From an uncultured delta proteobacterium (GTDB taxonomy: Bacteria; Desulfobacterota; Binatia; UBA9968), in assembly GCA_963737905.1 (NCBI GenBank), contig CAVTUQ010000019.1, forward strand, positions 183,584-247,583: a stretch of 64,000 nucleotides of DNA, written 5' to 3'. Shown piece after piece: positions 5,858-16,839 of the stretch. The position numbers and the translations under genes were made by a program. Below the pieces are notes generated by a model. It had not been told where the DNA came from. It saw only the letters and a program-made list of their open reading frames with translations, and searched no databases. Each line of letters begins with the position of its first letter. Positions within the stretch are counted from its first letter, which is position 1.

Positions 5858-6181
5858 ATGACGATTCGGGTTGGAAATTTATTTGCGAATTTGCCGGAGC
5901 TTTCCAGGTCGGAGCAGTTGCTGAGCCTGTTTGAAAACCCCCTCGTCGAGATCCAGCGCATCATTTCGCAATCTCATAGCAGCCCGCCCGGCTTTTGGTA
6001 TGATCAAAACGAAGACGAGTGGGTCATGGTGGTACGCGGGGAAGCGACTCTGGAATTTGAAGGCGGAGAGCTCGTGCCCATGGCAGAGGGAGATTATGTG
6101 ACGATTCCGCGCCATGTAAAGCATCGAATTCAGCAGACTGGTCCTAAAACGATCTGGCTTGCTGTACATGTTCGCGGCTAG
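5858..6181 (+). CDS. Cupin domain protein
   Basis: WYDQ.EDEWV.V..G.A.L and GDYV.IP.HVKHR cupin motifs. Confidence 0.85.
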   Translation: MTIRVGNLFANLPELSRSEQLLSLFENPLVEIQRIISQSHSSPPGFWYDQNEDEWVMVVRGEATLEFEGGELVPMAEGDYVTIPRHVKHRIQQTGPKTIWLAVHVRG

Positions 6182-6204
6182 AGAAAGGCTGGAGGAACCT
6201 GTGG

Positions 6205-6681
6205 ATGACGCGCATTTACAATAGCATCCAAATCCGGCGATCCATCGAGCAGGTTTTCGATTTCATCACGACGCCGGCAAGCTGGCCGCAGTGGCATCCG
6301 GCTTCGGTGAGTGTTGGCGGCAACGCTGACCATTCTTTGCTGCCGGGCGAAGAGGTTATGGAAAACATTTCCGTGGCGGGTCGTGGTGGGAAGGTCACCT
6401 GGTTGGTGCGGGAACGGAGCGCACCTCATCGCTGGATCATCGACGGCACCGGGAAAGACGGCGGCCGCGCAACGATTACCTATACCTTGACTGAACAGTC
6501 GGGTGGGACAAACTTCGAGCGAGAGCTCGTCTACACGATGCCGAACCCGCTGCTGGCGGTCTTGGATTGGTTGATTATCCGTTCGCGCATGAAGGCGGAC
6601 TCCATGGAAGCATTAAAACGTTTGAAGCGTCGACTTGAATCCAGCGTCGTGAATCCAGTCTTTGTACGGCTCGAACCGTGA
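6205..6681 (+). CDS. SRPBCC (polyketide cyclase/START-like) family protein
   Basis: I.RSIEQVFDF.T.P..WPQW N-terminus and C-terminal L..LK..LE helix. Confidence 0.85.
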   Translation: MTRIYNSIQIRRSIEQVFDFITTPASWPQWHPASVSVGGNADHSLLPGEEVMENISVAGRGGKVTWLVRERSAPHRWIIDGTGKDGGRATITYTLTEQSGGTNFERELVYTMPNPLLAVLDWLIIRSRMKADSMEALKRLKRRLESSVVNPVFVRLEP

Positions 6682-6707
6682 CCTGTGATTTGATACCAAC
6701 GGTCATT

Positions 6708-7238
6708 TCACTTTCTTCTTTTTATATACTCCTTAACTTGAAACTCGTAGAGCGCGGAAATCGGGTATTCTTCCAAATTACGAACAGCCTCCTTTGTCTC
6801 GGACAAAATGACGACTTCTTGACCACGATTGGAAGCAAAGAGAAGTTTGATACCGGGCTTGCGGTCTAAAAACTCCCCAACGGCGCGAAGGGTATTGGAG
6901 AGACTATATGGATCAGGCATCGCATTGGGATCATCGCTCGGCTCCTTGCGTTCTTCATCCTGGCGGTCTAACTCTTCCAGGGAATATAAGAACTCCACAT
7001 TCATTGAAATGCCCTCGTTCGGCTTCTCGGCAACGCTCGGATTTTCTGGCTCCCTCCATAGCCGCAGAAACGCTGCGAATCCTCTAACCTTTTTTTCTTC
7101 CTCTTTCTTGCTCTGGCTGTCTTCCTTGACTCGGCACCGGACGAGGTAACAGTTGCCGTAACACACCACTTCGTATGTTTCAGGCCGTAACGGCTCTAGC
7201 TTCTGCCCAACAACCCTAAGGATTCTTGAATAACTCAT
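6708..7238 (-). CDS. Hypothetical protein
   Basis: 176 aa ORF with a GAGG RBS; internal repeat S..LR.VG..L; no recognised family. Confidence 0.6.
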   Translation of the reverse strand: MSYSRILRVVGQKLEPLRPETYEVVCYGNCYLVRCRVKEDSQSKKEEEKKVRGFAAFLRLWREPENPSVAEKPNEGISMNVEFLYSLEELDRQDEERKEPSDDPNAMPDPYSLSNTLRAVGEFLDRKPGIKLLFASNRGQEVVILSETKEAVRNLEEYPISALYEFQVKEYIKRRK

Positions 7239-7667
7239 TGCCTCTGATCAGATAGCTCGTTTACAATGAAGATGCGATTTTCCCTAGACCCGCGTCCGTG
7301 CCACCTCTTCTTTGATTCCGGTTTTTTCAAGAGACTGGCCGCTTCCCGGCCAATAGCGTTATTGTCCCCCCATGGGGTTAGAGCTGTCAACCCGAGATTC
7401 GGGTATCGAGATTCCAGTCGGCACAAATCAGTTGAGGAAGGTGATCTAAGGGCTTTCTTGTTGCGCATCCGTGTGGGAAAATCTAATTATCAAGGAAAAC
7501 AAGCCTAAACATCTGCACCGCCGGGCGACCTTAGCAATTCGAGCCACCTCGAACACAGCGGTGTCCAGACCGGCCCGGCGACGATAGGCAATCGCGTTCC
7601 TCGTTTCGAGCAATGTAAAGCTCGCGTAAAGTTCTCAATTCGAGTCGATCAGAAAAGAGGATCCATC

Positions 7668-8567
7668 ATGCCTTTTTCAGAAATTGTCAAGGCAATCCAA
7701 TACGGAATGCATTTCAGGCTTTTTGAGATCAACAGAACCGCGATCACGTTGTCTTCGCTCATCATGTTTTTCGCGGTGATCTTTGTATTTGCTTTGATCT
7801 CGAAATTGTTGCGCCGGATCGCGGCATCACGGATATTTGCCCATCTGATTGTTGATGAAGCTACGCAGTACACGCTAAACCGCATTAGCCACTATGTCAT
7901 CATGATCATCGGCGCTCTCGTTGCCTTTCAGTTCATCGGCATCGACTTGACCGGGCTCGCGGTGATTCTGGGCTTTCTCTCCGTCGGCATCGGTTTCGGT
8001 CTGCAAAATATCACATCCAATTTCGTGGCCGGCTTGATTCTGCTTTTCGAACGACCCATCAAGGTAGGAGACCGCGTCACCGTCGGCGATCAAGAGGGTG
8101 ATGTGATAGAAATCAAGATGCGGTCGACGACCATCCGAACCTTGAATAACATCGCGGTCATTGTTCCAAACTCCAATTTCATTTCGTCTACGGTTGTTAA
8201 TTGGTCCTATGGCGACCGCCGGGTCCGGCTCGAAATCGAAGTCGGAGTATCTTACGGTTCCGACCTGGAGAAGGTTCTGCGGGTCTTGAAGGAGGTTGGC
8301 GATGAGCACCCCGAGGTTCTTAAGAATCCACTATCCGAAGTCCTTCACGCCGGATTCGGGAATTCTGCGTGGAATATGAAACTGCGCGCTTGGATTGCTG
8401 AACCGCAACGACATCCGCAAATCAGCTCGGAACTCCACTGTGCGATTGTAAGAAAGTTTCGCGAGAACGGCATTGAAATCCCCTTTCCACAGAGAGACTT
8501 GAACTTGCGTTCCCCTTTGCCTGTACCCTTTATGTCAACTATGTCAACGGCTTCGGCCGAGTCATGA
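7668..8567 (+). CDS. Small-conductance mechanosensitive channel (MscS family)
   Basis: GIGFGLQ...NFVAG..LLFERPIKVGD, IVPNS and IEIPFPQRDL motifs. Confidence 0.93.
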   Translation: MPFSEIVKAIQYGMHFRLFEINRTAITLSSLIMFFAVIFVFALISKLLRRIAASRIFAHLIVDEATQYTLNRISHYVIMIIGALVAFQFIGIDLTGLAVILGFLSVGIGFGLQNITSNFVAGLILLFERPIKVGDRVTVGDQEGDVIEIKMRSTTIRTLNNIAVIVPNSNFISSTVVNWSYGDRRVRLEIEVGVSYGSDLEKVLRVLKEVGDEHPEVLKNPLSEVLHAGFGNSAWNMKLRAWIAEPQRHPQISSELHCAIVRKFRENGIEIPFPQRDLNLRSPLPVPFMSTMSTASAES

Positions 8568-8714
8568 GCGCTCAACCGTCTCTGATCTGCGAGAAAGAGG
8601 ACTGAAAAAAGCACCAACTATATAGTATAGTAATTGCGAGTCTTTATCGGCGGCAAAGATTATTATGAATAGAACCAGTCCGCGTTTAAAGCGAATGAGC
8701 GAGGGAGGCTCACG

Positions 8715-9278
8715 ATGACGAGACGTGCCCTGTTGCAGAGTGTGTTTGCATCCGCGATTTGGACCTTATTCAAGGATCTCGCTTTTGCGGCCCAGCCGCC
8801 ATCAATGAAGGACATCGAGAATTTGCAGAAAAACTGGAAGGCGCTATTGGCTGACGGGACCAAGTTGCCGTCGCCTTCCGATCCGCTCAAGCTGTCGAAA
8901 GAAGAATGGCGCAAGCGTCTGAACCCAACGCAATTCAATATCCTGCGCGAGGAAGGTACCGAGCCCCCCGGCACGAGCCCTCTGAACAACGAAAAGCGGC
9001 CCGGCGTATTCGTTTGCGTCGGCTGCAACCTGGCCCTTTTTACCTCCGATATGAAATACGAGAGCGGCACCGGCTGGCCGAGCTTCTTCACCACGATTCC
9101 GGGCGCCTTCGCCAACAAAACGGATTACAAACTGATTCTGCCGCGGAGCGAATACCACTGCATCCGTTGCGGCGGCCACCACGGCCATGTCTTCGACGAC
9201 GGCCCGCCGCCGACGGGGAAGCGCTGGTGCAACAACGGCGTGGCTTTAAAATTTATCCCCAAAAGCGGCAGCGCATAA
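8715..9278 (+). CDS. msrB: Peptide-methionine (R)-S-oxide reductase with a Tat-like leader
   Basis: GTE.P, two CxxC zinc motifs, SGTGWPSF, HHGHVFDDGP, RWCNNG; leader MTRRALL. Confidence 0.95.
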   Translation: MTRRALLQSVFASAIWTLFKDLAFAAQPPSMKDIENLQKNWKALLADGTKLPSPSDPLKLSKEEWRKRLNPTQFNILREEGTEPPGTSPLNNEKRPGVFVCVGCNLALFTSDMKYESGTGWPSFFTTIPGAFANKTDYKLILPRSEYHCIRCGGHHGHVFDDGPPPTGKRWCNNGVALKFIPKSGSA

Positions 9279-9285
9279 CCAGTAA

Positions 9286-9317
9286 GGATTGAGACGACTT
9301 CCGAGTCGTTTCAATCC
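9286..9317 (+). terminator. Hairpin after msrB (GGATTGAGACGACT-TCCG-AGTCGTTTCAATCC), 3 nt from the mobile element end
   Basis: 14 bp stem with one G-T pair; no U-tract, because GAT-GTTCAAG follows. Confidence 0.45.
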
Positions 9318-9614
9318 GATGTTCAAGAAGCCCGTGGTTGAGGCAGGCGGGATCAATATAAGGGAAATGGTTGTGGTGGGCGGTTTGCGCCGAAGGAAGA
9401 GAAGGTTAAATTACACGGTGGACTTCGGCTCGCGGTAGAAATGGGCGCGGTAGAGTTTGCTCGGGTTTAGTTTTTTCTCCTTGAATTCCCACAACAAGAG
9501 AGACTCGGAACGATACCATCGGTAACGTGAGCGCACTTCGGCGCCTGCGCTCTGATTTCAAAGCAATACAGCAGAGACAAACCGCGAGACGATTATCAGG
9601 TTGAGCGAACTTTT

Positions 9615-10706
9615 TTATCCCGAGCGGCGCAGAATTTTGAACGGCGGCAGCACCGAGCGTAGCTTCAGCAACCCGCCACAACTTGGGCAGGCAGTGCGTT
9701 TTGGAGGGTCGATCTCGGGGACCGGCAAATCGACAGCGAAACCGTAACTTAATTCGATCAGGCCACGAATCCGATCGAGCGGGATCTTGCAGTTGGGATT
9801 CATAAAGCCGTAGTAGCGGATTTTCATGAAGCCAGTGGGCAGCACATGCTGCAAGAAGCGGCGGATGAACTCCATAACATCAAGAGCCAAGATTCTGGAG
9901 CGCTGGCTGTGAGGCTTGCGATAGCGAATCAGCACGGTGCGGTCCTGGACGCCAAGGATGCGCGAGTTGGAGATGGCGACTTTGAAGACGTAGGGAGCGA
10001 GGTATTTGAGGCAGGCCTCACTGGAGGAGACCGCTTGGCAGTTGACGTTCCAGGCGATTTGCCAGACATCGTTGGGAATTTGATCGAACAATTTTGCTTG
10101 TTTCATCAGATCGCGGAACTTGGCCCTAAAGATGATCGAGAGCGCTTTGACCGGCAGAAAGAAATCGATTCGGGAAGGATGCCAAGAGCCATCCAATGAA
10201 CGCATAGCGCCACCCGAAACGATGTAGTGGATGTGGGGATGGTACTGAAGAGTTCGTCCCCAGGTGTGCAGCACACCGAAGAAGCCTGGGAGATCGGCAC
10301 CGATGTGTTTGGGATCAGTGGCGAGCTTTTTGATCGCCGCAGAAGAGGACTTGAACAGAGCCGAGTAACCGAGGCGCTGGTGTTGGCGGATGAAGGAACG
10401 CAATTTTTCTGGAACGGTAAACGTGATCAGGAAGTGATGGCCTGGGAGTTGGCGCTGGATCTGGGTTTGGAGCCACTGTTGGGATTTGTTGTACTGGCAG
10501 GTGGGACAGTGGCGATTGCCACAGGAAACGAAGAACTGTTGCGGCTCAGCACAGCCCTCGCACTGATAGAAAGCGATCCCGCAAGCCTCGGTGCGACAAG
10601 CGATGATGGCATCGATGACTTTACGATGGCTGCTGGGCATGGTCGTAGCATAGCGTTGGAGATACTCGGGGCCGAAGGTGGAAAAGATTTCACGAATGGA
10701 GGTCAT
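9615..10706 (-). CDS. IS91-family rolling-circle transposase (Y2 HUH)
   Basis: N-terminal Zn domain CRT..CG...C..C...SCGNRHCPTCQ; HUH motif HPHIH; YLAPY; FIRRFLQHVLP.GF.KIRYYG. Confidence 0.95.
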   Translation of the reverse strand: MTSIREIFSTFGPEYLQRYATTMPSSHRKVIDAIIACRTEACGIAFYQCEGCAEPQQFFVSCGNRHCPTCQYNKSQQWLQTQIQRQLPGHHFLITFTVPEKLRSFIRQHQRLGYSALFKSSSAAIKKLATDPKHIGADLPGFFGVLHTWGRTLQYHPHIHYIVSGGAMRSLDGSWHPSRIDFFLPVKALSIIFRAKFRDLMKQAKLFDQIPNDVWQIAWNVNCQAVSSSEACLKYLAPYVFKVAISNSRILGVQDRTVLIRYRKPHSQRSRILALDVMEFIRRFLQHVLPTGFMKIRYYGFMNPNCKIPLDRIRGLIELSYGFAVDLPVPEIDPPKRTACPSCGGLLKLRSVLPPFKILRRSG

Positions 10707-11577
10707 GATCGAGTCCCTCCATCACGTGATTGATCAACTGACAGGCATCTTCCTGACCCTTCTGGGTCAGGTGGAGATAGAGCATGGTGGTTTCGAGACG
10801 GGAGTGGCCCAGGTAGCGTTGGATGACGCGCAGGTTGACGCCGGCTTCGAGGAGATGGGTGGCGTAGGAGTGGCGCAGGGTGTGGACCGCAACGCCCTTT
10901 TTGTTCACGCCGGCGTCCCGCTTGGCTTGGCGAAAGGCGCTCTGGAGGGTGCTCTTGGCCATGGGTTGGGTAGCCTGATGGGCATCGGTTTTTTTGTGGC
11001 CGCGAGCGGGGAAAACAAGCCGAGGATGGCGATGAGTGAGCCAGTATTGGCGCAGCAGATGGAGTGTGGGCTGGGGCAGAGCGACGTAGCGGTCCTTGGC
11101 GCCCTTGCCGCGGTGGACATGGATCATCATGCGCTTACTGTCGATATCGGAGACTTCGAGGTGGCGGGCTTCGTCAAGGCGCAGGCCGCAGGAGTAGACG
11201 GTGGAGAGAAAGACGTGGTGGGGAGAGTTTTTAACCTGGGCCAGAAGGCTTCGGACTTCTTCGACGCTTAAGACAGCGGGCAGGCGGTGTTCGTTCTGGG
11301 CGCGCAGAATCGACAGGATGTGCCAGTCGCGCGCTAGCACATGGACGTAGAAAAAACGAATACCGCAGTAGCAGATGCGCATCGTCTTGGGCGCCCAGCG
11401 GTTGACGTTTTTGCGATGCAGAAAGTATTCTTGGAGCTCGGGTTCGGAGACGAGATCGGGCGTTTTCTCGTAAAACTCAGAGAGCATCCGTACCGCGCGG
11501 GTATAGGCTTTCTGGGTGGGTTCTCCTTTCCCATTGAGTTGCAGGATGGCGATCATCCGTGGATACCAATCGTTCAT
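10690..11577 (-). CDS. Tyrosine recombinase (phage integrase/XerD-like) associated with IS91
   Basis: GLR..E, GKG.KDR, HTLRHSYATHLLEAG, LGH...TT..Y catalytic residues; lacks the IntI-specific insertion; overlaps the transposase start by 17 bp. Confidence 0.95.
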   Translation of the reverse strand: MNDWYPRMIAILQLNGKGEPTQKAYTRAVRMLSEFYEKTPDLVSEPELQEYFLHRKNVNRWAPKTMRICYCGIRFFYVHVLARDWHILSILRAQNEHRLPAVLSVEEVRSLLAQVKNSPHHVFLSTVYSCGLRLDEARHLEVSDIDSKRMMIHVHRGKGAKDRYVALPQPTLHLLRQYWLTHRHPRLVFPARGHKKTDAHQATQPMAKSTLQSAFRQAKRDAGVNKKGVAVHTLRHSYATHLLEAGVNLRVIQRYLGHSRLETTMLYLHLTQKGQEDACQLINHVMEGLDHDLHS

Positions 11578-11682
11578 AAAGTTCTCCTTCCGAAATAAGA
11601 TAGGAGAGCTTATCGAACAACGATGGTGGTGGGACAGGAACGAATGTCAGGGCGAATTAACTGCCGCGGAGCGGCTTACTTG

Positions 11683-11738
11683 AACCATTGGGTTGAGACG
11701 GTCGCGGCAGACCGCGCCTCTCACCCACAACGTTAGAC
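11683..11738 (+). other. attC-like site 1, with the R'' box replaced by the IS end upstream of AAC
   Basis: AAC-CATTGGGTTGAGA...TCTCACCCACAAC-GTTAGAC; inner arms pair with one extra base; very similar to attC2. Confidence 0.8.
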
Positions 11739-11761
11739 AGCCGAAAGTCAGGAGAGCGCCG

Positions 11762-12625
11762 ATGATGGATCCGATCAGACGCAAAATCCTTCAAACAGGC
11801 GGCGCGGCAACGGTGATAATCGCAGCGCGGCGAGTGTTTGGTCAGCAAACTGCACAAGGAGGAGCTGCAATGTCGTTCTACAAAAAAGGCCCCGTTTGCA
11901 TTCAATATGAGGAGGCCGGTTCTGGCTTCCCGTTGTTGCTCGTTCCTGGCGGGGGATTGAACTCGACGATCGCCGGCTTGAAACGCGGCGGGCCTTTCAA
12001 TGCGATCGAAGAGTTCAAGGGAGAATACAGCTGCATCTTCTCGGACATGCGCAACGCCAATGGCGGTCAGTCCTACGGCCCACTTGAGATCGATCGGCCG
12101 TGGGATGCCTATACCGATGACCATATCGGTGTGATGGATCATTTAGGAATAGACAAGTTCATGGTCATGGGCTTCTGTATCGGCGGTCCGTTGATTTGGA
12201 ACCTTCTGAAGCGGGCACCCGATCGCATCGTCGCAGCCGTGCTGGCACAGCCCAGCGGATTCCGCCCGGAGCTGCCCAACCACTCGTACGACAACAACAT
12301 CAAGGGTTGGGGCCCCGAGCTGGTCAAGCGCCGGCCCGACATCACGATGGAGATGGTCGACAAATTTCTAACCAAGATGTACCGCACCAACCCCGACTTC
12401 GTCTGGACTGTGACACGCGATTTCGTGCGCAATTGCCGGACGCCGGTGCTGATCCTGCCGGATGATACCCCGCCGCATCCGTACGTCGTCGCCATGGAGG
12501 CCGCCATGCTTGCGCCGAAGGCAGAAGTGAGCATGTTCCCGTGGAAGGAGCCGAAGGAACGGATTCCCCTGGCGGTGCGCCAGATACGTTCCTTCCTCCG
12601 GGCGCACCGGCTCGCTTCTGTTTAG
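11762..12625 (+). CDS. Alpha/beta hydrolase (gene cassette 1)
   Basis: G.G.PLLLVPGGG; nucleophile elbow GFCIGG; Tat-like leader RRKIL; lies between attC1 and attC2. Confidence 0.85.
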   Translation: MMDPIRRKILQTGGAATVIIAARRVFGQQTAQGGAAMSFYKKGPVCIQYEEAGSGFPLLLVPGGGLNSTIAGLKRGGPFNAIEEFKGEYSCIFSDMRNANGGQSYGPLEIDRPWDAYTDDHIGVMDHLGIDKFMVMGFCIGGPLIWNLLKRAPDRIVAAVLAQPSGFRPELPNHSYDNNIKGWGPELVKRRPDITMEMVDKFLTKMYRTNPDFVWTVTRDFVRNCRTPVLILPDDTPPHPYVVAMEAAMLAPKAEVSMFPWKEPKERIPLAVRQIRSFLRAHRLASV

Positions 12626-12688
12626 ACGGAGGCGTCAGTACCAGAAGGCCGTCGACGCCAGGTGACCGCATGAAACCTTTCTTACGCC

Positions 12689-12748
12689 GTCTAACCATTG
12701 GGTTGAGAATGACGCGGCAGAGCGCCCCTCTCATCCATGGCGTCAGAC
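12689..12748 (+). other. attC-like site 2
   Basis: GTCTAAC-CATTGGGTTGAGA...TCTCATCCATGGC-GTCAGAC; R'' GTCTAAC is the complement of the cassette's 5' GTTAGAC; R' core is mutated GTT>GTC. Confidence 0.8.
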
Positions 12749-12781
12749 GTCAGTCTCAGTCAACAGGTTACGGAGGTGGCT

Positions 12782-13249
12782 ATGGAACCCAACTGCACAC
12801 CGATGCTGATAAGTACCAGGCCGGAATGGGAGGCGCGTCACAAAAAAGCGAGGACCTGTTGCAACTTGTGTATGGGATAACAGTGGAGGCTTGGAGTTAG
12901 CGGAAAGATTCTGGGACGCGGCTATTGCGGTTGATCCAGAAGCTAAACGAACTGGGGATAGCGTTATGGATCACCAAGTGCGCTTTCAGATTTGTGGACC
13001 GCCACTGGTTTTGCGAATGTTGAAACAAAGGCCCTGATTATTCCTATGGAGTTTACTTCCTTCGAGGATTTGTGGCGCATTGAGTCGAATGCCCAGGGAC
13101 CGCCTAAACTTTATATCAGTACTCTCTCTGAGCATCGCCAACAGGCATTGAAGGAGCGACTACGCACGGATATTCTTGGTAATCGCCCTGATGGATCGAT
13201 TATGCTTAGTGCCAAGGCTTGGGCAGTGCGCGGGGTGGTACCGGCATAG
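12782..13249 (+). pseudogene. Decayed class I SAM-dependent methyltransferase (gene cassette 2)
   Basis: Fragments DADKYQAGMG, VATCVWD..GG...FWDAA..VDP and F.SFEDLW...GP...L.A.AWAVRG lie in different frames; the SAM-binding core is deleted. Confidence 0.65.
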
Positions 13250-13285
13250 AATTTTTCCGCGGACTGGTTTTTCGCAAAACGGAGC

Positions 13286-13342
13286 GTCTAACTTGGCCTC
13301 AGACCGATCGCTTACAGCGCCGGCTGAGCGTGAACGTTGGCC
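13286..13342 (+). other. attC-like site 3
   Basis: GTCTAAC-TTGGCCTCAGACCG...CGGCTGAGCGTGAAC-GTTGGCC; 57 bp; inner arms CTCAG(A)CCG/CGGCTGAG. Confidence 0.75.
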
Positions 13343-13364
13343 TTCAAATTACCGAAGTTTGCTT

Positions 13365-14081
13365 ATGAAAATATTTCTGTCGCATCGCAGCCGAGATAAG
13401 GCGTTGGTCCGTGAGTTTAGGGACCTACTGCCAAGGTTCTTAGACGCTTGGCTCGACGAGGAAAGGCTTTCGTGGGGCGATTCCTTCCCAGGAGAGCTGA
13501 AGTCGAGCATTCAGTCGGGGGTCGATTTCTTAATCATATTCCTGGACAGGGAGGCGCTTAGTTCGGCATGGGTGAAACAGGAACTCCAATGGGCAATCGA
13601 ACGCGAAAAGGAATTGAAGAGGACGTTTATCCTGCCCATCCTGCTCGAAGAAGTTTCTCCTGAAAATCTGCCCACTGAGTTTTCCACGCGATTATACCTT
13701 CGACTGGACGATTTCAGCCGTGCGTCGGTTGAGGCATTGGCGACCAGAGCGACACTACAACTGTTTCGTTTGGTTGTCGAAAGTTTCTCAGCTGTCCAGC
13801 TCGAAATACCGCGTCGCGAATCGCTCAACGCAATCCGTGACGGGCTTAGTGCAGGGCAGGCTCGTCTGCTAGGGTATATAGTCCGACAATGCAGTGATGG
13901 CTCAGAGCTGACGCAACGCGAGATCGAGACTGCAATGGGACACGCCCATGGCTCAGCAGAACTCTTTTACCGACTGGAATCGCTGATCGCACAAGGTTTC
14001 CTATTGAAGCGGCGCATAGCGGCAGATGGACAGTTTTCATATCGACTAAGCAAGGACTTTGGGGAGTTACGAGAAGGCTAA
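13365..14081 (+). CDS. TIR-domain protein with a probable C-terminal winged helix (gene cassette 3)
   Basis: MKIFLSH...DK, WLDE..L.WGD, S.WV.QEL (catalytic Glu), ILPILLE; the TAA stop lies inside R'' of attC4, as is typical of cassettes. Confidence 0.85.
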   Translation: MKIFLSHRSRDKALVREFRDLLPRFLDAWLDEERLSWGDSFPGELKSSIQSGVDFLIIFLDREALSSAWVKQELQWAIEREKELKRTFILPILLEEVSPENLPTEFSTRLYLRLDDFSRASVEALATRATLQLFRLVVESFSAVQLEIPRRESLNAIRDGLSAGQARLLGYIVRQCSDGSELTQREIETAMGHAHGSAELFYRLESLIAQGFLLKRRIAADGQFSYRLSKDFGELREG

Positions 14082-14163
14082 CCAAGCGTTGGACCGAACG
14101 GTGAATAGCGGCGATCGTGATGGCAGCGATTTTTCGCGCCGCCGGTCAACTCGGCTGTTAAGC
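14076..14163 (+). other. attC-like site 4
   Basis: GGCTAAC-CAAGCGTTGGACCG...CGGTCAACTCGGCT-GTTAAGC; arms GTTG(G)ACCG/CGGTCAAC with an extrahelical G; 88 bp. Confidence 0.8.
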
Positions 14164-14223
14164 TGCCTGCACTATGCCACCTTGACACTTGTCAATTTCG
14201 TTCAGATACGCCAGATATGATCC

Positions 14224-15065
14224 ATGACAACCATCAACCAAAATCGCACGCGAATGAACGACGCTCTTGATCCCTCATCTATCCTCCAAACCGCTTTCGG
14301 TTTTTGGCATTCCAAAGTCCTGCTCACGGCCGTCGAGTTCGGTGTGTTCACGAAACTCGCCGGTCGCCGTCTCACCGGCGCCACCCAGCGGCGCATCGGA
14401 CGATTCGAGTTGGCGAACGGCGGTACGATCTTTCTCGACGAGGTTACCGAGTTGCCCATCGATACGCAGGTCAAGCTGTGCGCGTGCTGCAAGAAGGAGA
14501 GTTCGAACGAGTCGGAAGCAGCAGACGATCAAAGTCGATGTGCGCGCCATCGCCGCCACCAATCGAGCTCAATGAGGTTGTGAAGAACGGAACCTTTCGG
14601 TCGGATCTTTTTTACCGGCTCAACGTGTTTCCTCTGAGGGTGTCGGCGCTGCGCGAACGGAAAGATGATATTTCGCTCCTGGTCAATTTCTTTCTGAGCA
14701 AATTTGGCAAGAAATTGGGTAAAGAGGTGCGGGGTGTCTCTCAGAGATCGATGGATAGTTTGGTCAACTACGACTGGCCGGGAAACGTGCGTGAATTACA
14801 AAACATCATTGAGCGCGCGGTGGTGCTCGCCGCGGGTCCGATCGTCCAGATCGACGACTCGATGATGCGCTCCGGTGAAGCGGCGCAGGAGTCGGCCCTC
14901 GATACGCTTGAGAATGCTGAACGCAATCACGTCCTGCGGGCGTTGTACGAAACCCATTGGATTGTTCACGGCAAGAAGGGCGCGGCGGAGATCCTTGGGA
15001 TCAACCCCAGTACCTTGCGATCGCGGATGGAGAAGCTTGGAATAAGGCGGCCAGCGCAATCGTAA
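14224..15065 (+). pseudogene. Chimeric remnant: O-methyltransferase dimerisation N-terminus fused to a frameshifted sigma-54 activator (FhlA/NifA-like) C-terminal half
   Basis: [15 protein letters not shown], then [39 protein letters not shown] and a Fis-type HTH AAEILGI.PSTL; several frameshifts at about 14480-14575. Confidence 0.8.
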
Positions 15066-15110: not shown

Positions 15111-15776
15111 TCAACGGTCCGTTGGACGGTTCAACGACGACGACTTGAACGAATGGAACAACTGGAGCTTTTGGAACCTCGGCCATCGCGGCGCCCATAT
15201 GATGACCAACCGGTACCCGAGCAGCAGCGCCAATATCGCACCGTATTGAAACGGCCGGCGAATATCGGCTTTCACCAACCAGTAGAAATGAATGACGCCG
15301 GCGATTGCCGCGATATAAACCAAGCGGTGCAACCGCTGCCAGCGCTTGCCCAGCCTGCGAATCATAGCTGCCGTCGAGGTGATCGCCAGCGGGATCATAA
15401 GCACGAAGCCGGTAAATCCCGCGGTCACATAGGGGCGCTTGATGATGTCTTTGACGATCGCTTGAAAATCAAAGAAATGATCGAGCACCAGGTAAGTCGA
15501 GAAGTGCAGGCCCGCGTAGAAGAAGGCGAACAGTCCTAGCATCCGCCGGAACTTGATTATCTCGTTCCATCCAAAGATTTTGCGTAGCGGTGTCACGCTG
15601 AGTGTTGCCAGCAAGAAGATCAAAGTCCAATCGCCGGTAAAGTGCGTGATAAACTCGATCGGGTTTGCTGTCAGATCACCAGCCCATGCGTTGTACAGTA
15701 GCTGCCCCAACGGGATGAGACAGGCGATAAAGACAGCGAGTTTTAAGCGGGACAACATAGTCGGCATATAGCTCAT
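15111..15776 (-). CDS. msrQ: Sulfoxide reductase heme-binding subunit
   Basis: H.TG.W.L..L..TL..TPL, RRMLGL.AFFY..LH, W.RLHRLVY; adjacent to msrP. Confidence 0.95.
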   Translation of the reverse strand: MSYMPTMLSRLKLAVFIACLIPLGQLLYNAWAGDLTANPIEFITHFTGDWTLIFLLATLSVTPLRKIFGWNEIIKFRRMLGLFAFFYAGLHFSTYLVLDHFFDFQAIVKDIIKRPYVTAGFTGFVLMIPLAITSTAAMIRRLGKRWQRLHRLVYIAAIAGVIHFYWLVKADIRRPFQYGAILALLLGYRLVIIWAPRWPRFQKLQLFHSFKSSSLNRPTDR

Positions 15777-15868
15777 GGTTTATAGCATATGGCGCGGCCT
15801 ATGACTTATCGCAGCGTCTGCTCTCGATTGGTGCATAGCCGAGCCATACGCTATAGGCCATACGCCAT
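15767..15868. repeat. 7-nt periodic TATGGC/GCCATA inverted repeat
   Basis: TATAGCTCATGGTTTATAGCATATGGCG...GCCATACGCTATAGGCCATACGCCAT; related copies at about 20870, 21965 and 38110. Confidence 0.7.
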
Positions 15869-15876
15869 TTACTCTC

Positions 15877-16839
15877 CTAATAATACTTCTTCAAATCCAT
15901 CCCACGGTAAAGGTCCGCGACCTGTTCACCGTAGCCGTTGAACATCAAGGTCTTTCGCCTGAGGAATTCACCGATGCGCCGTTCCGTCGCCTGGCTCCAG
16001 CGCGGGTGGTCGACTTCGGGGTTTACGTTGGAATAAAAGCCGTATTCCTGCGGCTGCATCAGGTTCCAGGCGGTGGGTGGTTGTTTTTCGACGAAGCGGA
16101 TCTTGACGATGGATTTGATGCTCTTGAAGCCGTATTTCCACGGCACGACAAGCCGGATTGGCGCTCCGTTTTGCGAGGGTAGTGTTTCCCCATACAGGCC
16201 CACAGACAGTATCGTCAACGGGTGCATCGCTTCGTCCATCCGCAGTCCTTCGACATAGGGCCATTCCAGCACGGGGAATTTTTGCCCGGGCATGCGCTTT
16301 GGATCTTGTAGTGTGACAAACTGGATGTACTTTGCTTTGCCGGTGGGCTCCGCGAGCTTGACGAGCGAATTCAAAGGAAAGCCGACCCAGGGAATCACCA
16401 TCGACCAGGCCTCGACGCAACGCAAGCGATAGATTCTTTCTTCCAGCGGGGCGATCTTTATGAGCGTGTCAATGTCGTAGGTTTTTGGTTTATTAATTTC
16501 ACCCTCGACGGCGATCGTCCAGGGACGGGTCGTGAGATATTTGGCGTTTTCTGCCGGATCGCCTTTGTCGGTACCGAGTTCATAGAAGTTGTTGTAGGTT
16601 GTGATGTCTTTAAGTGAATTCAATTTTTCGCTGGTACTGAACGAGCTTTTGCGAAGGTCGCTCAATTTTTCTCCCGCGATGACTTGACGAGGCGAGAGAG
16701 ACGCACCGAACCCGCTGAGGACTGCGCCGGCGGATAGCGCCGTGGCGGACGCAGCGAGAATAAACTGACGCCGGTTCAAGTAAAGATCTTTGGGGGTGAT
16801 CTCAGATGACTTTATGTCGTTCGATTTCGTGATCAGCAT
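15877..16839 (-). CDS. msrP: Protein-methionine-sulfoxide reductase catalytic (molybdopterin) subunit
   Basis: [13 protein letters not shown] Tat leader, [44 protein letters not shown]. Confidence 0.97.

Follow-up and report, generated by a model that had tools for sequence, protein, structure and literature searches.

How does an insertion sequence come to stand with one end exactly on the conserved triplet of an attC site, at the head of a cassette array beside which there is no integron integrase? The question is raised by a stretch of 64,000 nucleotides (positions 183,584 to 247,583 of contig CAVTUQ010000019.1, assembly GCA_963737905.1; the whole stretch is called the window below) from an uncultured delta proteobacterium (Binatia, UBA9968), in which a mobile element made of an IS91-family HUH transposase gene and a tyrosine recombinase gene runs into an array of four attC sites. 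A preliminary description of this DNA, made from its letters alone, had set two readings side by side: an element that targets attC hairpins, or an element whose end serves as an attI-like site for the collection of cassettes. The comparison with related elements of other genomes favours the former. The element appears to be an attC-site-seeking insertion sequence (IS) rather than a cassette-capturing platform, and the clade to which it belongs inserts preferentially at the R'' core of attC sites, antisense to the cassettes, a statement to which, combined with the mechanism proposed further on, we attach a probability of about 0.6.

The element and its ends

The two ends were located by means of ten copies of a relative in one chromosome, 78 related loci and contigs of other samples. 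The features are as follows:

9280-11685, minus strand: the mobile element, 2406 bp, an intact IS91-family IS with a tyrosine recombinase
9276-9279: target tetranucleotide adjoining oriIS, TAAC on the plus strand and 5'-GTTA on the transposase strand
9280-9327, minus strand: oriIS region, consisting of a 6-nt spacer (9280-9285), an imperfect hairpin (9286-9317), 3 nt and GTTCAAG (9321-9327)
9615-10706, minus strand: IS91-family HUH/Y2 transposase, 363 aa, matching NF033538, Y2_Tnp and Zn_Tnp_IS91
10690-11577, minus strand: tyrosine recombinase, 295 aa, IntI/Xer-like, with Phage_integrase and SAM_4 domains
11663-11685, minus strand: terIS, with a 13-nt palindrome (11663-11675) and a terminal GAAC on the plus strand, 5'-GTTC on the transposase strand (11682-11685)

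The identity of the two minus-strand genes, proposed beforehand, is borne out by the domain matches. The transposase scores 361.6 bits against NF033538 (cut-off 125) and matches Y2_Tnp (PF04986, E 7.9e-55) and Zn_Tnp_IS91 (PF14319, E 1.6e-26). The recombinase gene, which overlaps the transposase start by 17 nt, encodes a protein with a Phage_integrase match (E 2.5e-35) and the SAM-like N-terminal domain SAM_4, in whose translation the catalytic R, K, HxxR, H and Y motifs can be read by eye. Against the integron-integrase model TIGR02249 this protein scores 168.8 bits (cut-off 265, E 1.8e-49) in two stretches, corresponding in the genome search to model positions 16-176 and 232-306, and against the archaeal XerA model it scores a near-equal 172.2 bits, both values lying below the models' own cut-offs. 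A pairwise alignment with the IntI protein of the same genome shows that some 30 residues are missing from the stretch that separates the GKG..R strand from the VFPA motif. The lack of the I2 insertion that the preliminary description had noted is thereby confirmed; below the TIGR02249 cut-off and devoid of the IntI-specific insertion, the recombinase is not classed as an integron integrase.

The extent of the element had to be revised. Its left end had been placed at 9321; the element is 9280-11685 and not 9321-11685 because the conserved hairpin of 32 nt is part of it. Incomplete copies within the genome itself (C25:349339-350109, 81% identity; C7:230928-230992, 89%) share the window sequence from about 9274, 45 nt to the left of the end noted earlier, with the hairpin included, and the homology of the window with other copies of the element begins at the target tetranucleotide 9276-9279. 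Contigs of other metagenomes (Logan) agree with this limit: their match to the window starts at 9276 with foreign sequence before it, and one of them stops at 11687 with foreign sequence behind. One Desulfobacterium chromosome carries ten full copies of a relative (2484 bp, transposase 61% identical to that of the window), all of which start with the 13 nt of the window's right end and finish with CTTGAAC, followed after 3 nt by a hairpin and after another 5-6 nt by GTT; beyond this GTT the flanks of the ten copies differ and no duplication is found. The inverted pair GTTCAAG/CTTGAAC, which had been taken for the two extremities, is real in so far as GTTCAAG at 9321-9327 is an exact inverted copy of the last 7 nt at the other end; this copy is internal and stands beside the hairpin. 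The hairpin itself spans 32 nt with a 14-bp stem and folds as DNA at -14.1 kcal/mol (z -4.47). Its stem shows covariation across 27 family members, in 21 of which an internal mismatch situated eight pairs above the stem base is unpaired, and its loop varies among relatives from 4 to more than 40 nt. By eye, the 3' arm of the hairpin of the window resembles the 3' arms of attC1 and attC2.

Further copies and variants of these structures were observed. Degenerate remains of the same element lie at further places in the genome (C25:349339-350109, C7:230928-231211 and C9:97486-97727), two of them in or beside attC clusters and one about 4 kb from intI; a genome-wide scan that allowed 1-2 mismatches in the end motifs was much too permissive to be informative. 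In a set of relatives (L019, L021, L023, L043 and L055 by their ori ends, together with L027 and L058), some have the whole ori module (GAAC, spacer, hairpin, spacer, GTT) twice in tandem, and in others the last 5-7 nt recur as short repeats where the ori end lies; one idea is that they arise from repeated cutting or joining at the ori site. A second clade of recombinase and IS91 transposase pairs, about 35% identical to the window proteins, is present at C25:342380-345250, C1:58550-61000 and C22:19800-22400. It starts with GAAC and a small palindrome and finishes, in the two copies showing that end, with a long hairpin, 7 nt and GTTAGGC; its ter-side flanks do not look attC-like by eye.

Insertion at attC sites across the family

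A search of positions 9000-15000 with Rfam (E <= 5) gave no attC and no group II intron, the sole match being a chance snoRNA, and two covariance models were therefore built. The model R1 derives from 13 junction attC sites abutting related elements in other genomes (alignment A2), and the model R2 from 21 attC sites situated at no element junction, 20 from other genomes together with attC2 of the window (alignment A4). Because RNAalifold found no consensus structure on alignment A2, the structure of the junction sites was written by hand and then checked: 79.1% of its cells are paired, compared with 64.4% in shuffles, none of 500 shuffles being as high and slid controls reaching at most 52.6%. 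It is made up of an AAC/GTT box, a spacer and a stem in which two bulged positions lie six pairs from each other, and compensatory changes are seen in 9 of its 11 stem pairs. R1 recovers attC4 and attC2 of the window, which are at no junction, and in the related loci it detects 97 sites, 93 of them on the element's strand. Two home-made attC scanners were dropped in favour of these models, one having missed known sites and the other, based on folding, being noisy; the latter reported few sites near the genome's intI.

In the window, the right end of the element (...CTTGAAC) continues directly into attC1, exactly at the AAC of the R'' box. This meeting point, noted in the preliminary description, is upheld by R2 with 44.7 bits (E 1.8e-8). 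Since the last 7 nt of the element stand in for R'', attC1 is structurally complete, its score being close to the 44.5 bits of attC2; its bottom strand folds at -15.8 kcal/mol, and it belongs to an attC type found elsewhere in the genome.

The same arrangement recurs in the family. The 78 related loci, with transposases 52-90% identical to that of the window, come from Desulfobacterota, Rokubacteria, Anaerolineales, Beta- and Gammaproteobacteria, SAR324, Sulfurovum and others. The 13-nt ter motif is present in 62 of them and the ori motif in 71, and the loci in which a motif is missing, taken together and not singly, mostly have a contig end near or inside the element. The ter motif is common to 67 ends, all on the transposase strand, of which 64 are distinct and have at least 50 nt of flank. 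We counted a junction as exact when the GTT of an R2 attC lay within 1 nt of the element's first three bases, R2 being trained on no junction site. By this measure an attC ends exactly at the ter end in 19 of the 64 cases at 24 bits or more, in 24 at 19 bits or more and in 27 at 13 bits or more, where our own arithmetic (72 same-strand sites in 600 kb) expects about 0.02 by chance. The orientation is equally constant: once opposite-strand duplicates are merged, 72 of 77 attC sites of at least 24 bits lie on the transposase strand, and the five others belong to two loci with no attC at their own junction. The 60 nt upstream fold with a median of -12.5 kcal/mol at attC junctions and of -5.0 at control GTTs (p 6e-11). 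These counts support at the level of the family the earlier suggestion that the element targets attC hairpins, and the covariance-model check of the flanks that had been recommended, run here with our own models, reveals the enrichment of attC at the ter ends that it was meant to measure.

The ori side is consistent with this picture. The base that follows GTT is an A in 41 of 49 insertions and in 10 of 21 free attC sites (p 0.003), the four bases past the element resemble the rest of an R'' box (AGGC, ATGC, GGGC, etc.), and in several reconstructed sites these four bases pair with the four bases that precede AAC beyond the element. On these grounds we hold the anatomy of the element and its attC targeting to be highly probable. 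Among the 51 elements for which both ends are present, 21 have one or more additional attC sites in their flanks, in 5 cases on both sides, in 7 only on the ter side and in 9 only on the ori side. No close relative was found in the plasmid collection, where the nearest transposase is 40.6% identical.

The cassette array, the msrB flank and the integrase of the genome

The sites and genes that follow the element are these:

11679-11738, plus strand: attC1, a seed of R1, its R'' box being formed by the element's last 7 nt
11762-12625, plus strand: cassette 1, alpha/beta hydrolase (Abhydrolase_1, E 3.6e-9)
12689-12748, plus strand: attC2, a seed of R2 and not of R1 (R1 20 bits, E 0.0078)
12992-13249, plus strand: cassette 2, an open reading frame (ORF) of 85 aa with no Pfam or NCBIfam match
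13286-13342, plus strand: attC3, weak (R2 14.6 bits, E 2.3; R1 11 bits)
13365-14081, plus strand: cassette 3, TIR-domain protein (TIR_2, E 4.4e-17)
14076-14163, plus strand: attC4 (R2 29.2 bits, E 2.6e-4; R1 26.7 bits)
14224-15065, plus strand: distal edge of the array, a gene fragment running into the frameshifted C-terminal part of a sigma-54 activator (ORF translations, by eye)

The array is real, with one weak site: attC1, attC2 and attC4, as described earlier, are each backed by a model that was not trained on them, and attC3, which had been listed with them, is only weakly scored, its position and orientation agreeing with the array. The bottom strands of the four sites fold into imperfect hairpins with z values of -3.63, -2.32, -1.42 and -1.02 from attC1 to attC4. 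[quoted passage not shown] R1, run with filters off, found nothing more above E 0.8 in the window. A weak match to the attC model (C19:183425-183482, 22.8 bits, E 0.15) stands roughly 100 nt ahead of the window. Cassette 3 gives weak matches to anti-phage TIR families and, C-terminally, to the winged-helix domain MarR_2, and is defence-like; the fragment at the distal edge of the array, which is truncated there, comprises about 50 N-terminal aa and resembles by eye a methyltransferase dimerisation domain.

That the array is without IntI, as the preliminary description had it, holds locally and not for the genome, in which the search for a true intI that had been advised found one on another contig (C7:226498-227442, 456 bits, cut-off 265) in addition to an intI fragment on C26. 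The genome also yields at least 24 R2 matches on 11 contigs (150 of 2962 candidates scored), two of them next to intI and four in the surroundings of the incomplete element copy on C25. Its sole full-length IntI (C7:226498-227442; L001:1501-2445) reads ...TTMVCTHV..., with a cysteine at what we take to be the position of the catalytic tyrosine of IntI proteins; unless this cysteine is a sequencing error, the protein may be inactive.

On the oriIS side the neighbour of the element is the following gene:

8715-9278, plus strand: msrB, SelR domain (Pfam SelR, E 1.8e-41)

The TAA stop codon of msrB (9276-9278) lies inside the target tetranucleotide. Its homologues in six loci of related genera are 77-81% identical in nucleotide sequence over the ORF only, and R2, run with filters off, found no attC behind them in the six loci, nor when one unpublished genome was omitted; the sole R2 match in their vicinity (13.8 bits, E 0.14) lies upstream of the gene in L094. 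As its homologues are without attC, msrB is a core gene and not a cassette, and the presence of an attC directly on its stop codon therefore needs explaining. An empty site sought through msrB synteny was not found in 30 relatives, only the msrB ORF being conserved within flanks of 1.5 kb. The candidates for the origin of the junction are a simple insertion into an attC already present, in which case the tetranucleotide 9276-9279 would be what is left of the R'' box; a read-through of terIS, or one-ended transposition, that would have brought the segment from attC1 to about 14370 out of a donor array into the TAAC at the msrB stop; an adjacent deletion; and an assembly join across a repeated IS. 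A contig joint from 12692 back to 11683, present in one contig of X1, was set aside as probably due to the likeness of attC1 and attC2.

The genes just past the array (15111-16839) are by eye MsrQ- and MsrP-like, and msrB may once have been closer to them, the block made of the IS and the cassettes now standing between. In two related loci (L094 and L096), one of them from an unpublished genome (G012), msrB lies about 100-250 nt from a homologue of window positions 6002-6171; in the window, about 2.5 kb (6170-8715), with an ORF of unknown function and an MscS-type channel gene, separates the two.

Mechanism, rival explanations and known systems

The mechanism that we propose, and to which we give even chances, is transposition by the HUH enzyme from an oriIS that mimics attC. 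By analogy with the IS91 model, the transposase would move the strand antisense to its own gene by rolling circle; the transferred strand would be cut 3' of the tetranucleotide beside oriIS and joined 3' of xAAC in the target, which in the window would be the cassette top strand at RYYYAAC. An attC would be preferred for its resemblance to oriIS, since in both a 7-nt box is followed by a short spacer, an imperfect stem whose loop varies, a second spacer and finally GTT. That A is in excess after GTT speaks for a HUH enzyme that reads a tetranucleotide. As for the recombinase, it may serve to recognise the folded sites or to control termination or resolution. The mobilisation of adjacent cassettes by one-ended transposition may occur by the same analogy; it predicts attC sites on the ter side only, and the nine junction-attC elements with at least 3 kb on each side have them on the ter side only in three cases, on the ori side only in two, on both sides in two and on neither in two.

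Several observations weigh against this account. Within the window, a simple insertion is not established, since the flank on the ori side is a core gene, and no source-sample read across either junction was seen in the material covered, which consisted of assembled contigs only, neither the absence of such a contig nor the uncovered parts of the stretch being used as evidence. The attC models are home-built and not the published attC model, and neither R1 nor R2 scores the element's own hairpin as an attC. In the family, 37 of the 64 ends (36 of 62 in the folding comparison) have no R2 match. By eye, about nine of these 36 show the 3' arm of a long attC, three of which are detected by R1 (L036, L087 and L049); they are kept outside the counts of 19, 24 and 27 of 64. 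The remaining 20 or so fold like control GTTs (medians of -4.6 and -5.0 kcal/mol, p 0.82). The preference for attC is therefore not absolute. A test based on fold energy only is weak, with 8 of 47 sites below the 5th percentile of the controls and none below the 1st. Many loci come from few genomes, 11 of them from one chromosome, each copy having flanks of its own.

A rival explanation, in keeping with the same sequences, makes the tyrosine recombinase the integrating enzyme, the HUH transposase only making the single-stranded circle. The joined ends of this circle would fold in the manner of an attC, an imperfect stem and its variable loop being accompanied by spacers and a 7-bp box, and would cross over with a folded attC at AAC/GTT as IntI does, the arm used being R'' on the cassette top strand. 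The grouping of the recombinase with IntI (by the TIGR02249 match) speaks for it, as does the report that IS91-borne recombinases form part of an integron-like subgroup without the IntI insertion (bioRxiv 10.1101/542381). So do the exact inverted 7-nt copy beside the hairpin of the opposite end, the attC-like combination of a conserved stem imperfection with very variable loop lengths, and the GTT present on both sides of the element, which a crossover inside GTT explains as well as a cut beside it. Moreover, the preference for attC is seen in a clade bearing the recombinase, and canonical IS91 is reported to need only a tetranucleotide (PMC13181058). However, all these end features are already covered by the canonical terIS and oriIS of IS91, about one third of the insertions are at places without an attC-like fold, the marked preference for A behind GTT suggests that the HUH enzyme reads a tetranucleotide, the recombinase is devoid of the insertion with which IntI reads extrahelical bases, and no circle junction was seen in the assembled contigs. 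We consider the integration by the recombinase unlikely. Its fuller form, a two-enzyme single-strand pathway in which a HUH-made circle with attC-like joined ends would be integrated by the recombinase at R'' of a folded attC top strand, and in which one-ended transposition would seed integrase-less clusters, is slightly more doubtful still.

The remaining explanations are far less probable. According to one of them, the element end would be attI-like and the recombinase would build the adjacent array without IntI. The window invites this idea, as its array stands only on the side of the IntI-like recombinase and is transcribed away from it, the intI-attI-array geometry of the preliminary description. 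That geometry is not a trait of the family, since some relatives have attC sites on both sides, and the nine junction-attC elements have them on both, either or neither side. A full-length IntI, 52-64% identical to that of the genome, is encoded within 6 kb in 4 of the 78 loci (L053, L031, L052 and L018); the genome has its own intI and several other attC clusters, among whose attC type the junction attC is one more member; and the end architecture is that of a canonical IS91 element. The collector role once suggested for the element end is thus unsupported, and we regard the capture platform as very improbable. It is barely credible that an ordinary IS91 insertion merely hit a GAAC-like tetranucleotide which by chance lay in an attC. 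Targets of four bases, as ascribed to IS91 (PMC13181058), are common, and about one third of the family insertions are not at attC sites; against this stand the 19 to 27 ends of 64 at the same attC nucleotide, where about 0.02 is expected, and the fixed orientation (72 of 77).

We return to the attC-seeking IS in order to compare it with known systems. Like IS91, IS801, IS1294 and ISCR, it has a HUH/Y2 transposase with an N-terminal zinc-binding domain. In the description of the IS91 family (PMC13181058), terIS stands upstream of the genes, where a subterminal palindrome neighbours the cleavage tetranucleotide, which is 5'-GTTC in IS801 and IS1294. The oriIS stands downstream; it comprises one or two palindromes and, adjacent to them, a target tetranucleotide that is essential, 5'-CTTG or GTTC, in which T is always second; no target is duplicated, one-ended transposition is well known, and the accessory orf121 of IS91, which overlaps the transposase start, sharpens termination. 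The element agrees with that description in its terIS (5'-GTTC and a 13-nt palindrome upstream of the genes), in its ori palindrome, spacer and target tetranucleotide with T second (GTTA), in the lack of target duplication, and in an accessory gene overlapping the transposase start as orf121 does. It departs from the family in that the accessory gene is a tyrosine recombinase, that the target is mostly GTTA, that the insertions concentrate at the attC R'' core in one orientation, and that the ter end and the stretch adjoining the ori hairpin share 7 nt in mirrored form.

IS91 members with an extra integrase gene are listed in ISfinder. An IS91-like element, ISShvi3, was noted adjacent to an attC in one Shewanella integron (PMC9229058). 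Compared by description and not by sequence, the element has the same two-gene layout as members of the ISShvi3 type; it presents a systematic attC targeting, an exact insertion point and an attC-like oriIS, features not described in the passages cited here. Searches of the open full-text literature found none of these features described for IS91-type elements; subscription journals, ISfinder/TnPedia and supplements lay outside their scope, and an account may exist there.

Two other kinds of attC-invading element work with different enzymes. IS1111-attC elements use an IS110-type transposase, and group IIC introns a ribozyme and a reverse transcriptase. Both invade the attC sites of cassettes (PMC9229058), as the element of the window does. 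The latter is moreover inserted opposite to cassette transcription, like the group IIC-attC introns. Unlike IS1111-attC, its only transposase is of the IS91 type, and unlike a group IIC-attC intron, it has no Rfam intron match in 9000-15000 and no reverse transcriptase domain. With the IntI/attC system it shares its recombinase subgroup, sites that fold as imperfect hairpins and bear AAC/GTT boxes, and a junction at the conserved triplet; it differs from that system by the lack of the IntI insertion, a score below the cut-off, a junction at R'' and not at R', and the absence of an identified attI. IntI exchanges strands at R', the end of attC opposite to R''. As it is R'' that the element replaces, a cassette with the IS inside should stay recognisable to IntI.

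Such a system has several consequences. An insertion that leaves the attC intact would let the element ride along within a mobile cassette, and a read-through of the IS91 type could move neighbouring cassettes without IntI. The clade is widespread in environmental bacteria of several phyla, its accessory recombinase counts among the nearest relatives that the integron integrase has, its transposition origin shares the build of an attC, and its arrangement explains the misannotation of such recombinases as integron integrases beside attC arrays. If the two-enzyme pathway were true, these recombinases would be insertion-less relatives of IntI already acting on folded DNA of the attC type, a possible link to the origin of integron integrases, and one-ended transposition would carry cassettes and seed integrase-less attC clusters such as that of the window. 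Both the origin of folded-attC recognition and the spread of integrase-less cassette clusters become testable in this family. In conclusion, the element is at once a member of the IS91 family and an attC-invading element, and a cassette-site-seeking IS of this kind appears to be previously undescribed. It would represent a third kind of attC invader, endowed with HUH rolling-circle chemistry, beside the IS1111-type ISs and the group IIC introns (PMC9229058).

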